A stretch of 5,298 nt of DNA, from contig CAZECW010000085.1 in assembly GCA_964510585.1 (NCBI GenBank), positions 1 to 5,298 of the forward strand, given 5' to 3'. Both the position numbers and the translations under genes were made by a program. The notes under the pieces are model-generated. The model was not told where the DNA came from. It did not search any database and worked only from the letters and a program-made list of their open reading frames with translations. This stretch comes from an uncultured archaeon (GTDB lineage Archaea > Asgardarchaeota > Jordiarchaeia > Jordiarchaeales > Jordiarchaeaceae). Numbering within the stretch: position 1 is the stretch's first letter; the number at the start of each line of letters is the position of its first letter. Positions 147 to 4,969 of the stretch are shown here, piece by piece.

Positions 147-274
147 GGTTTTGTAAAATAATACTAGAAATAGAGAATATAGTACTAGAAACCAAAAGAT
201 TTGGATGTGTTCACGGGATTGAAAAGTTAGTTTAATGTAGGTTTTAAAAATATAATAGCTATGGAGGAAGGAAT

Positions 275-1513
275 GTGGTATTTCTCACAAGAGAGGAAGA
301 ACAAATGCTTAATGGGGAATACGGTGCTGCGGCTCAGGAAGCTATGAGTATACTGGTGAAGCTTGCTGAGGCTTACGATGCAGAGAGAATGATCCCGGCT
401 AAGAGTGCACATGTAGCAGCGGGTCTTTTCCTTGAGGAAATTGAGTGGTATGAGAAACTCATTCAGGGAGGAGCCAAGTTCAGGTGTTTCACCACGAGGC
501 ATCCTTGGGGTATTGATTACGACCACTTTGAGGAAGTGGGTACCATATATGGTAACACGCCGGAAATCAAACAGATAGGTGAGCAAATCTTCGGCTACTC
601 TTTAAAAATGGGAGCTATCCCCATGGGTACTTGCATTCAGTATTTGCTGGGGGATTTTCTTATGCCCGGAGATGCTTTCTCCTGGACGGGGTCCTCGGGG
701 GTAGTTTTTGCGAATTCTGTTCTGGGTGCGCGGGGAAACATGGAGGGAGCGGTGACCAACTACTGTGTTGGCATAACGGGAAGAGTTCCAGAGATCCGTA
801 TGCATCTGGATGAGAATAGGAAGGGGCAAGTCCTAGTTGACTGTAGTAAAATAGATTTTAATGGGTTTACGGATGCAGACTATGGAGCCTTAGCATTCCA
901 TGTGGGTAAGGTGGTGGGCGATGAAATTCCAGTATTCGTGGGGCTGCCTAAGAAAATGAACCTAGAACAACTGAGGGCCATAGCTTCTCCGCTTCATGTC
1001 AGTGGAGCAGTACCTATGTTTCACATACCCGGAATCACTCCGGAAGCTCCTACCTTGGAAGCTGCCTCTGGTGGACAAAAGCTGGAAAAAGTACAAGTTG
1101 ACATGGGGGATGTTAAGGCAACTTATGATGAGATAGCCACAACTGGAGGTGACAAGCTAGATATGGTGAACTTTGGGTGCCCACACTTAACCTACAAGGA
1201 GATTAGGGAAATAGCCGAATTTCTGGATGGTAAAAAGGTGCATAAAGATGTGAAGCTTTGGGTGGGAACCTCATACCAAGTGAAAGTTGTGGCTGACCGA
1301 GCGGGCTGGACGCAAAAGATAGAAAATGCGGGAGGCCTTTTGGTAACTAATATCTGCATGGGTCCGGGGGCACCCTTTGCGGCGCGGGGAATGAAAATAG
1401 TGGCAACAAACTCTCCCAGGTCTGCTTATTACGCTTCGGGAGTGGAGCACCTCTACGGAAGCACTAAAGATTGTTTAGAAGCCGCAATTAGCGGCAAATG
1501 GAGGGGTAAATAG
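275..1513 (+). CDS. Aconitase X catalytic (large) subunit, DUF521-type; divergent homologue of phosphomevalonate dehydratase large subunit / cis-3-hydroxyproline dehydratase
   Basis: 412 aa, GTG start with GGAGG at 263-267. Family hallmarks: N-terminal LTREEEQMLNGEYG, SAH, ANSVLGARGN, SGAVPMFHIPGITPEA, GCPH, ATNS. Three Fe-S ligand-position cysteines: C120 (GTC), C302 (GCPH), C361 (NIC). Confidence 0.93.
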   Translation: MVFLTREEEQMLNGEYGAAAQEAMSILVKLAEAYDAERMIPAKSAHVAAGLFLEEIEWYEKLIQGGAKFRCFTTRHPWGIDYDHFEEVGTIYGNTPEIKQIGEQIFGYSLKMGAIPMGTCIQYLLGDFLMPGDAFSWTGSSGVVFANSVLGARGNMEGAVTNYCVGITGRVPEIRMHLDENRKGQVLVDCSKIDFNGFTDADYGALAFHVGKVVGDEIPVFVGLPKKMNLEQLRAIASPLHVSGAVPMFHIPGITPEAPTLEAASGGQKLEKVQVDMGDVKATYDEIATTGGDKLDMVNFGCPHLTYKEIREIAEFLDGKKVHKDVKLWVGTSYQVKVVADRAGWTQKIENAGGLLVTNICMGPGAPFAARGMKIVATNSPRSAYYASGVEHLYGSTKDCLEAAISGKWRGK

Positions 1514-1929
1514 TGTCTATCAGATTGAAGGGACGAGGTTTAGTTAAAGGTAAGGCTGAGGGAGAAGCCCTAGTTTCAAATCAACCAATATCATTTGTGG
1601 GAGGAGTCGATCCCAATACGGGAATAGTGATTGAGAAGGAACATGACATTGAGGGCCAGAGCATCAAAGGGAAGGTGCTCATTTTCCCGTTTGGTAAGGG
1701 AACCACCTATAACCCATTCGCCATATTCGCAATGAAGAAGCGGGGCACCGCACCAGCAGCCATAATAAACGTCAAAACAGAGGAGATAGTGCTCACGGGA
1801 GCCATACTCGCTGAAATACCCTTTATAGACAAGCTGGATAAAGACCCCCTCAAAGTCATAGAAAGTGGCGACTATGTGAAAGTTGATGGAGACACCGGCA
1901 CACTAGAAGTTACAAAGAAAAGGAGTTAA
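1513..1929 (+). CDS. Aconitase X swivel (small) subunit, DUF126-type
   Basis: 138 aa. The GTG start overlaps the upstream TAG stop by 1 nt (TAGTG), with SD-like GGAGGGG at 1500-1506. Family motifs: GKAEGEALVS, ISFVGGVDPNTG, H..GQSIKGKVLIFP.GKG, APAAII, GAILAEIP, GDYVKVDG. Confidence 0.93.
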   Translation: MSIRLKGRGLVKGKAEGEALVSNQPISFVGGVDPNTGIVIEKEHDIEGQSIKGKVLIFPFGKGTTYNPFAIFAMKKRGTAPAAIINVKTEEIVLTGAILAEIPFIDKLDKDPLKVIESGDYVKVDGDTGTLEVTKKRS

Positions 1930-3872: not shown

Positions 3873-4043
3873 TCATCTATTTTTGGTTTCATTTTCGTCT
3901 TCCATTAAAAGTTCGATTGCCCATTCGAAGCCACATTTTACGCAGCGGCGACCAACGTAGATGAGGCAATCGGCGCAGACATCTTTCCTTATGAGAATTT
4001 TTTGGTGCTCTGCAACTGCGCCACATCTGGGACATTTATGCAA
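3873..4043 (-). CDS. Small cysteine-rich zinc-ribbon-like protein (56 aa)
   Basis: MHKCPRCG...CADC...RCVKCGFEW with an acidic tail. TTG at 4043 lies 7 nt after a minus-strand GGAGG (4055-4051), so it is a better start than the ORF-track TTG at 4061. Confidence 0.72.
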   Translation of the reverse strand: MHKCPRCGAVAEHQKILIRKDVCADCLIYVGRRCVKCGFEWAIELLMEDENETKNR

Positions 4044-4178
4044 CTTGAAGCCTCCAAGCAAATAACATTTAGATATTTATTTCTTAACTGTTACCATCGA
4101 AAGATGGGTAAACATTAATGGTTTTAGGGGGGAATATTTTTTAATTTCTAAATTGTCTTTCTTATAGCAGTTGGCTTC

Positions 4179-4228: not shown

Positions 4229-4468
4229 TTGGTTACGTCGGCCTACATTCTTATTAAGACTGCTTCGGGTTTTGAGAAGAAAATTCTTGCAAGTTTGAAG
4301 GAGTTCAGCTCGGTGGAGCATGCGGATCTGGTTTATGGGCTCTACGACATAATAGTTAAGGTAAGGATGAATAATTCGGAGGAGTTGGACTCTTTTATCT
4401 TCGACGTTTTGAGACCCATGCAGGGCGTAGTTGAAACAATGACTTGCATATGCGCACCCGAAAAGTGA
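4229..4468 (+). CDS. Stand-alone Lrp/AsnC ligand-binding (RAM) domain protein, no HTH
   Basis: 79 aa, TTG start after AGGAGGG. The pattern AYILI.T..G.E..IL..L...V..ADLVYGLYDIIVKV......L..FI...LR.MQGVVETMT is the typical AsnC/RAM ferredoxin-like fold. Confidence 0.88.
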   Translation: MVTSAYILIKTASGFEKKILASLKEFSSVEHADLVYGLYDIIVKVRMNNSEELDSFIFDVLRPMQGVVETMTCICAPEK

Positions 4469-4537: not shown

Positions 4538-4969
4538 CTACCAGCGATAGGAGAATAACTCGGAGTCCATGAATTTTTTAGCCCACTTCACATAGACTAC
4601 TTTTTCTAGTTTTTCCACTTCTCTTTGAGTTGTTTCGTACTGCTCTATTCTCAGCATTTTTGAAGCTCTCAGCATGCCCAGCCACACATCAATTTTTTTC
4701 TCAGCTTCCTCTACAGAAATGCGGTCCCCTTCTATTTTATTTATAATTTTAAGAATTTCCTTCTCCAAGAGTCTGGAGAGGGTCGCGCCGAAAATGATAT
4801 CTTCTTTGGTCAAATTTCCACTTTTTTCCCGTTTTTTGAACTCTTCCACTATTGACTCTAGCTTGACCTCTTTACCGTTTATCTGTACGGTTTCGGGGAT
4901 GGCGGCGCTGGTGTATGAAAAAGGGCTGGAGAGTCTATTTATGATTTTTTGCTTCTTTGATTTTTGCAT
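4538..4969 (-). CDS. Conserved archaeal hypothetical protein, DUF5788-like
   Basis: 143 aa, ATG preceded by GGGGG. The pattern K.KII.RL......IPET.QINGKEVKL..IV.E...., IS.EEAE..I...LGM.RA..., and the C-terminal W.KF resembles the halophile/methanogen DUF5788 family as I recall it. Confidence 0.7.
   Translation of the reverse strand: MQKSKKQKIINRLSSPFSYTSAAIPETVQINGKEVKLESIVEEFKKREKSGNLTKEDIIFGATLSRLLEKEILKIINKIEGDRISVEEAEKKIDVWLGMLRASKMLRIEQYETTQREVEKLEKVVYVKWAKKFMDSELFSYRW

Follow-up and report, generated by a model that had tools for sequence, protein, structure and literature searches.

The gene pair and its products

The window analysed here, by which we mean the whole stretch of DNA under study, is an entire contig of 5,298 bp (C85; GenBank CAZECW010000085.1) from the metagenome-assembled genome (MAG) of an Asgard archaeon. 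The MAG amounts to 3.78 Mb and is 96% complete, and the DNA of the window also turns up in several hot-spring metagenomes. The public runs listed for it include no RNA data set, which speaks neither for nor against expression. On its forward strand the window carries two adjoining genes for the large (catalytic) and small (swivel) subunits of an enzyme of the aconitase X (AcnX) family. To our knowledge, only two reactions are established for this family as a whole, the dehydration of hydroxyproline and a key step of the archaeal mevalonate pathway, and the question considered here is which reaction the window pair might catalyse.

Membership of the AcnX family, and of its two-subunit Type II, follows from both Pfam matches and the adjoining genes. 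The large open reading frame (ORF) covers the full PF04412 model (3e-112; 375.6 bits, cut-off 31.5) and the small ORF the full PF01989 swivel model (2e-30; 105.1 bits, cut-off 27), the latter also passing the NCBIfam model NF003046 (166 bits, cut-off 163). The two subunits align with chains A and B of the AcnX of Thermococcus kodakarensis (TkAcnX; PDB 7cnr) at 3e-64 and 3e-38, respectively. The stop codon of the large-subunit gene and the GTG start of the small-subunit gene share a single nucleotide (TAGTG), and a GGAGGGG stretch lies 7 nt ahead of the second start. The assignment of the first GTG start to position 275 is supported by the N terminus (M)VFLT(R/K)EEE, which is common to the large-subunit orthologues. 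An A/T-rich box upstream of it (Table 1) is a candidate archaeal promoter for the two-gene operon.

Table 1. Positions of the genes, active-site residues and putative signals in the window. Residue numbers are those of the window proteins unless preceded by Tk (TkAcnX).
Feature	Position	Strand	Observation
A/T-rich, TATA-like box TTTAAAAATATAA	243..255	+	about 20-30 nt before the start codon; read from the sequence
Purine-rich stretch GGAGGAAGG	262..270	+	5 nt ahead of the GTG start; possible signal, read from the sequence
AcnX large (catalytic) subunit	275..1513	+	412 aa, GTG start; PF04412, 7cnr_A
Loop A48-A-G-L-F-L-E-E55	416..439	+	replaces the Tk phosphate-binding loop A47-G-V-S-Y-K-N53; 4 residues shorter
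R75-H76-P77-W78	497..508	+	instead of Tk L78-N79-P80-A81 (TLNP to TRHP)
Cys120, cluster ligand	632..634	+	aligns with Tk Cys110
Gly139-Ser140-Ser141	689..697	+	Tk Glu129 replaced by Gly; Tk Ser130 and Ser131 kept
Cys302, cluster ligand	1178..1180	+	aligns with Tk Cys283
Cys361, cluster ligand	1355..1357	+	aligns with Tk Cys342
Arg382 to Tyr386	1418..1432	+	Arg382 for Tk Lys361; Tyr386 equals Tk Tyr365, kept
AcnX small (swivel) subunit	1513..1929	+	138 aa, GTG start; PF01989, NF003046, 7cnr_B
G61-K-G-T64-T65-Y66-N-P-F69, small subunit	1693..1719	+	from the Tk alignment; invariant in the clade, absent elsewhere
4-Hydroxybutyryl-CoA dehydratase/vinylacetyl-CoA isomerase homologue	2244/2253-3785	+	PDB 1u8v, 4e-103; 6vjr, 3e-97

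A canonical enzyme in the same genome

The genome holds exactly two AcnX pairs, that of the window and one on contig C20 (93375-94885), the large subunits of which are only 34% identical. The C20 pair carries the motifs SGVSYK, STLNP, FSESS and GIGSTVGS, and its large subunit scores 455 bits against PF04412 compared with 375 bits for the window copy. It lies between a gene of the UbiD family, the family of anhydromevalonate-phosphate decarboxylase, and a gene for 3-hydroxy-3-methylglutaryl-CoA (HMG-CoA) reductase. The C20 pair is thus the separate, canonical phosphomevalonate dehydratase (PMDh) that a preliminary description of the window had proposed should be sought in this genome, which leaves the window pair as an accessory extra copy.

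Active-site residues

Residues of the window pair were compared with those of TkAcnX, with chains A and B of 7cnr as the reference and with the window codons checked. The residues of TkAcnX that contact mevalonate 5-phosphate (MVA5P) or take part in catalysis are those listed by Watanabe et al. 2021 (PMC8184944), and the motifs that the preliminary description had given as substrate or catalytic contacts of PMDh match that list. The substitutions that it had named (GKGTTYNP, WTGS, NSPR, AAGLFL and TRHP) are all present, at the codons that it had given.

As had also been described, the three cysteines at the cluster positions are kept (Table 1); the equivalent residues hold the [4Fe-4S] cluster in the PMDh of Aeropyrum pernix (PMC10040528). 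Also preserved is the half of the site that faces the substrate carboxylate, consisting of Thr65(S), Ser140, Ser141 and Tyr386, where (S) denotes the small subunit and (L), where used, the large. Thr65(S) corresponds to Tk Thr63(S), a carboxylate contact. Of the remaining contacts, Tk Ser130 binds the carboxylate, Ser131 hydrogen-bonds Glu129, and Tyr365 reaches the carboxylate via a water molecule (PMC8184944).

The landmarks of PMDh, namely Gly48-Val49-Ser50, Asn53, Asn79, Glu129, Lys361 and Ser62(S) in TkAcnX, are all altered. In the phosphate loop, GVSYKN has become AGLFLE with a deletion of four residues, such that Gly48-Val49-Ser50...Asn53 is replaced by Ala49-Gly50-Leu51...Glu54. Asn79, which in TkAcnX hydrogen-bonds both Glu129 and the substrate phosphate (PMC8184944), is His76 (codon 500-502), and the nearby pocket residue Ala81 is Trp78. 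Glu129, the contact for the C3 hydroxyl (PMC8184944), is Gly139 (codon 689-691), the motif WSES having become WTGS. Lys361, which contacts both the carboxylate and the C3 hydroxyl (PMC8184944), is Arg382 (codon 1418-1420; NSGK to NSPR). In the small subunit, GKGSTVGS has become GKGTTYNP, which replaces the catalytic Ser62 with Thr64 (codon 1702-1704) and the pocket residue Val64(S) with Tyr66(S).

The substituted motifs are invariant in 24 large-subunit orthologues that are 80-100% identical (P0001-P0024) and, except for Arg75, which is Leu there, they hold in one relative that is only 63% identical. Since the same residues are invariant in all of the orthologues compared, the substitutions are not chance changes. 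Among the 93 distinct small subunits gathered, GKGTTYNPF is identical in all 15 that belong to the clade of the window pair, and elsewhere the catalytic position is occupied by Ser in 68 of 78 and by Thr in none.

Phylogeny

A search of 1.8 billion cluster representatives returned 446 AcnX-like clusters at E < 1e-30. Trees were built with FastTree from 156 rows (representative clusters) and with IQ-TREE, under the posterior mean site frequency (PMSF) approach, from 50 rows. The ligand pattern of three cysteines occurs in 138 of the 156 clusters.

In the FastTree phylogeny, the PMDh clade consists of 14 clusters and includes both the genome's own canonical copy and a Thermococcus protein named phosphomevalonate dehydratase (P0203). 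At the positions used as markers (Tk 79, 129 and 361), all 14 have Asn, Glu and Lys, and in none of them do the substitutions of the window pair occur; the alignment check that the preliminary description had suggested thus came out in its favour. The window clade has support of 100/100 and stands away from the PMDh clade in both trees; in the IQ-TREE analysis, the branch that parts the PMDh clade from the 44 other rows, those of the window clade among them, has support of 100/99. The window clade is nested in a supergroup of 35 clusters (93/95), with relatives in MAGs of Desulfobacterota, Acidobacteriota and Bathyarchaeia. At the three marker positions, the branches of this supergroup include an Asn/Gly/Arg type (417-aa proteins), an Asn/Gly/Lys type and a His/Gly/Arg group of 16 clusters.

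This phylogeny changes how the substitutions should be viewed. Nearly every row of the supergroup has Gly where TkAcnX has Glu129, a few having Ala or Ser instead, and replacement of Lys by Arg is common there. Across the tree, Gly at this position requires only three changes and is found in 22 of the 25 rows that have Arg. Glu-to-Gly and Lys-to-Arg are old subfamily traits and not a local rewiring, and only the shorter loop (AAGLF) and the GKGTTYNPF motif of the small subunit, with its Thr and YNP, are specific to the window clade. The triple His/Gly/Arg is present in 18 of the 156 clusters. Union of the window clade with the large His/Gly/Arg group as a single clade was not rejected by the approximately unbiased (AU) test (p = 0.197), and His76 may be inherited from that group or may have arisen in parallel. 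The proposal that the pair is a paralogue with another substrate needs to be divided. Its position in the tree, its landmark residues and its score against NF051439 (see below) strongly favour a substrate other than those of PMDh and hydroxyproline dehydratase, and this part would stand; the pair does not appear as a rewired paralogue of PMDh, belonging instead to an old and separate supergroup of AcnX.

The same data bear on the suggestion that the window encodes a second PMDh, an isozyme that retains its activity despite the substitutions. Family, two-subunit architecture and the three cysteines are common to both, and the host is an archaeon with the archaeal mevalonate pathway. Every phosphate contact differs, however, as do three catalytic or hydroxyl-binding residues, and the pair falls outside the well-supported PMDh clade in a genome with a canonical copy in the pathway cluster on C20. 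The patchy distribution of the clade and the pseudogenes in several of its lineages, described below, also count against an isozyme, which we regard as barely credible.

Distribution, selection and decay

The clade is made up of thermophilic archaeal MAGs, including Jordarchaeales, with near-orthologues in MAGs labelled Freyrarchaeum, Archaeoglobi and Hadarchaeota. A survey of 400 Asgard genomes placed orthologues with 80% identity or more in the window's order alone, where five of 11 genomes have one, in one case 5'-truncated; a closed genome of the same genus carries the canonical copy only. For intact orthologues with estimable synonymous divergence, the ratio of nonsynonymous to synonymous substitution (dN/dS) is 0.02-0.07, with synonymous sites near saturation, a sign of strong purifying selection.

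Several relatives are broken. In Ca. Jordarchaeum madagascariense, a 5'-truncated copy lies beside a gene with transposase-type helix-turn-helix (HTH) domains (L041; G118:C12, 2001-2747). In one lineage, represented by four metagenome contigs (L098:4021-5227, L099, L100 and L101), the large-subunit gene has multiple frameshifts and a short deletion after GCPHLTY; in a Hadarchaeota MAG (L069:2232-3443) it is broken by an in-frame stop; and in the 63%-identical relative (L045:5372-6585) the large-subunit ORF is split.

With relatives in this condition, and with the catalytic Ser, Glu and Lys all replaced, it might be asked whether the window pair is itself catalytically dead or heading for loss, surviving as a relic or as a non-enzymatic binding protein. 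We consider this very unlikely. Both window ORFs are intact and, as had been argued previously against decay, they are coupled; the low dN/dS ratios and the invariant motifs now add to that argument. Lineages with an overall identity of 80-88% share every replacement and all three cysteines, and these persist, apart from Arg75, at 63% identity. Moreover, the residues brought in, Thr, His and Arg, are chemically competent. Distribution and selection together appear to form the pattern of a working but dispensable accessory enzyme that moves laterally.

Proposed function and mechanism

On balance, we think it probable that the window pair is a functional, heterodimeric, [4Fe-4S]-dependent AcnX hydro-lyase that is neither a PMDh nor a cis-3-hydroxyproline dehydratase, and that a non-phosphorylated β-hydroxy acid or a 2-enoate is its likely substrate. 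The substrate carboxylate would be gripped by Thr65(S), Ser140(L) and Tyr386(L), together with the cationic Arg382, and the β-hydroxyl would face the free iron of a cluster whose ligands are Cys120, Cys302 and Cys361. The distal end of the pocket would no longer bind phosphate; with Leu51, Phe52, Trp78 and Tyr66(S) around it, it seems reduced in size and largely hydrophobic. It is the shortened loop and these hydrophobic replacements that make a small, non-phosphorylated β-hydroxy carboxylic acid, or the matching 2-enoate if the enzyme works in the direction of hydration, the most likely candidate.

Catalysis would need a base and an acid. Thr64(S) would abstract the C2 proton in place of Ser. 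Since Arg donates protons poorly and Glu129 is no longer there, the obvious candidate for the acid is His76, at a position whose side chain in TkAcnX is in contact with Glu129 as well as with the substrate; His76 would probably protonate the leaving hydroxyl, reaching the site through the space freed by Gly139, and Arg382 would provide charge only. In the cis-3-hydroxyproline dehydratase AtAcnX, a Lys has been proposed to stabilise the carbanion and to protonate the leaving hydroxyl, and the S70A and K530A mutants are inactive (PMC8184944). In physiological terms, the enzyme would be an accessory, horizontally mobile catabolic one, whose product may be passed to an acyl-CoA ligase or enter the metabolism of short-chain acyl-CoA compounds.

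A number of points weigh against this proposal. The substrate class is deduced from pocket residues placed by alignment, and a charged substrate, instead of a hydrophobic one, could be implied by Arg75 and by the conserved pair Glu54-Glu55; Arg75 is Leu in the 63%-identical relative. We know of no precedent for Thr as the base in any enzyme of the aconitase family. The co-occurrence of His, Gly and Arg mostly reflects shared ancestry, and a co-evolution test of Gly129 with Arg361 or His79 (TkAcnX numbering) had only two to three independent contrasts and hence no power. The broken relatives in several lineages (L098-L101, L069, G118 and L045) mean that the function is easily dispensable, and no neighbouring gene is conserved across the 19 loci of the clade.

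Gene neighbourhood

The neighbourhoods of these 19 loci were compared by all-against-all BLAST of the neighbouring genes, supplemented by look-ups at single loci. The large and small subunit pair is their sole universal feature, and at none of the 19 is there a mevalonate-pathway neighbour (a UbiD-family or HMG-CoA reductase gene). Eight loci have a type-B carboxylesterase gene upstream in the opposite orientation, and an FGGY kinase recurs at five. In two lineages an AMP-binding CoA ligase is found upstream (orthologous; 71% identical), in one of them with MaoC and an SSF transporter as well. Genes resembling acetone carboxylase (HydA, HydB and gamma) lie upstream of the Freyrarchaeum orthologue. 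The carboxylesterase, kinase and CoA-ligase neighbours look lineage-bound, and we have used them as leads only. For the linked CoA ligase, the best match in the window's own genome is 59% identical and is one of at least 17 paralogues.

At least 17 paralogues of AMP-binding acyl-CoA ligase are present in the genome as a whole, several of them in tandem (e.g. C184:16289-20149 and C62:54705-58404), which suggests a broad diet of organic or fatty acids.

The scattered C4 and CoA-ligase neighbours are the reason for naming a 3-hydroxybutyrate/crotonate-type pair as a specific substrate, a guess that we put forward tentatively and that may well be wrong. A bolder formulation, which is equally speculative, would make the clade a mechanistically distinct form of AcnX, in which a His at a former phosphate-contact position takes over from the Lys/Glu pair as acid and a Thr serves as base, and which interconverts free short-chain 3-hydroxy acids and 2-enoates (e.g. 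3-hydroxybutyrate and crotonate) independently of CoA, so feeding acyl-CoA ligases. We know of no enzyme family that carries out such an interconversion by CoA-independent Fe-S chemistry.

Relatives within the supergroup give clearer pictures of free-acid metabolism than do the clade's own loci. In a Desulfospira MAG (L071:7275-14907), which represents a related branch and has an AcnX about 40% identical to that of the window, an operon comprises an HTH-cupin regulator, the AcnX large and small subunits, a tripartite ATP-independent periplasmic (TRAP) transporter (DctP/Q/M) and an enoate reductase with old yellow enzyme (OYE) and Pyr_redox_2 domains. The arrangement reads as a possible route of dehydration followed by reduction for an imported hydroxy acid. 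At a second locus (L050:2620-7001), the large and small subunits of a His/Gly/Arg-type relative lie between genes for the alpha (PF05681) and beta (PF05683) parts of a class-I fumarase/tartrate-dehydratase-type enzyme, followed by an iron-containing alcohol dehydrogenase. Two different Fe-S hydro-lyases are thus interleaved in one operon.

The second of these loci bears on an alternative, in which the window pair would act as a hydro-lyase on a di- or tricarboxylic hydroxy acid, such as malate, citramalate, tartrate or a citrate-like compound, with Arg382 and, where present, Arg75 binding the extra carboxylates. Such an activity would be close to the original prediction that gave aconitase X its name. 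The change of Lys to Arg, the loss of Glu129 and the presence of Arg75 all make the site more cationic, and the genome shows only two aconitase-family genes, of LeuC/HacA size, and no long aconitase. Nevertheless, we judge the idea unlikely. Arg75 is not maintained in the 63%-identical member of the clade, the residues that replace the phosphate loop are hydrophobic and are followed by two glutamates, and no dicarboxylate genes adjoin any member of the clade at the 19 loci. Moreover, absence from the closed genome of the same genus, and from six of the 11 genomes of the order, is unlike central metabolism.

Of the two genes for LeuC/HacA-type large subunits, one (C181:3044-4288, reverse strand) shows an in-frame TAG and an in-frame TAA in its six-frame match, and may be a pseudogene or an assembly error.

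Relation to known enzymes

The closest characterised relatives are the PMDh enzymes, or AcnX Type-IIb, of T. kodakarensis (TK1249/TK1248; PDB 7CNR/7CNS) and A. pernix. Like the window pair, these have two subunits encoded by coupled genes, and the homology extends over their full length, with an identity, as read by eye from the alignments, of about 35-40% in the large subunit and higher in the small. The positions of the three Cys ligands and the carboxylate contacts, equivalent to Thr(S), Ser130, Ser131 and Tyr365, are shared. The differences are the loop shortened by four residues and the replacements Asn79 to His, Glu129 to Gly, Lys361 to Arg, Ser62(S) to Thr and Val64(S) to Tyr, to which may be added that the window pair lies outside both the mevalonate gene cluster and the PMDh clade and is accessory rather than universal.

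AtAcnX is of the same family and is proposed to use the same chemistry, with a base in the small domain, cluster iron as Lewis acid and a cationic residue at the carboxylate and hydroxyl. Unlike the window pair, it consists of one fused chain, carries a [2Fe-2S] cluster and differs in the third Cys. Its contacts to the amine and ring of the substrate are absent from the window pair: Asp203, Thr72, Trp35 and Ile206 correspond to Ala48, Tyr66(S), Val29(S) and Leu51, a mapping made by way of the Tk equivalents in PMC8184944 and the 7cnr alignments. In addition, the window pair misses the cut-off of 700 bits of the NCBIfam equivalog NF051439, with 240.4 bits for the large subunit and 75.2 for the small.

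These discrepancies also count against a dehydratase for a β-hydroxy amino acid, or for a related nitrogen compound, which seems to us decidedly improbable. A case for it can be made, in that AcnX of Type I/IIa acts on a β-hydroxy imino acid (PMC5144071, PMC8184944) and the shortened loop ends in two conserved glutamates. Furthermore, genes of the hydantoinase/oxoprolinase family lie beside the Freyrarchaeum orthologue and, in a related branch, occur with an aminotransferase and an amidohydrolase. Against this, beside the clade itself the 19 loci include no hydroxyproline or amino-acid catabolic genes.

To return to the β-hydroxy acid hydro-lyase that we favour, a parallel with classical aconitase would arise if His76 donates the proton, as there would then be a His acid and a hydroxyl-residue base at a [4Fe-4S] site. 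In the mitochondrial and bacterial aconitases these roles are played by His101 and Ser642. His76 is not homologous to His101, however, the positions of the Cys ligands and the substrate sites differ, and the base would be Thr and not Ser.

The preliminary description had suggested that the pair probably acts on a new substrate, and here a qualification is needed. Subclasses Type-IIc to IIf, which possess no landmark residue of the dehydratases for cis-3-hydroxyproline (C3LHyp) or MVA5P, have already been noted and await characterisation (Watanabe et al. 2021, PMC8184944). The window pair is likewise a two-subunit AcnX that lacks either set of landmarks; those subclasses were described from bacteria, whereas the window clade is archaeal and has Thr for the catalytic Ser, a feature confined to this clade among the small subunits gathered. 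In the literature on aconitase X, DUF521, DUF126 and UPF0107, we found no function assigned to an AcnX that is neither a PMDh nor a hydroxyproline dehydratase. An AcnX with another substrate is therefore an already recognised question rather than a category of its own. The novelty lies in an archaeal clade in which the catalytic base is changed as well, with the canonical enzyme in the same genome as an internal control.

Annotation, and surveys in which the "archaea-type mevalonate pathway" is counted by the presence of AcnX, will mislabel the window pair as PMDh, and roughly a fifth of the nearest representative clusters (31 of 156) have no glutamate at the Glu129 position, a residue that both known enzymes share. 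As a compact two-gene target from a thermophile, the pair offers a convenient entry to a third AcnX reaction, and the clade lends itself to asking whether the roles of Ser and Lys/Glu in the chemistry of Fe-S hydro-lyases can be filled by Thr and His.

Other genes of the window

Downstream of the AcnX pair lies a homologue of 4-hydroxybutyryl-CoA dehydratase/vinylacetyl-CoA isomerase (Table 1), in which the residues that we take to be its [4Fe-4S] ligands (a C-x3-C motif, a His and a Cys) align. It was considered as an operon partner and rejected, as it adjoins AcnX at none of the 18 other loci. The spacer between them is 230-320 bp long, T-rich and contains an A/T-rich stretch of its own. Counting this homologue, the genome has five such paralogues, and stops are present in one of them.

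Other ORFs of the window encode a 79-aa stand-alone Lrp/AsnC ligand-binding domain without an HTH (4229-4468, forward strand), a 62-aa zinc-ribbon protein with four Cys residues (3873-4061, reverse strand) and a DUF5788 protein (4538-4969, reverse strand), and these three are not common to other AcnX loci.

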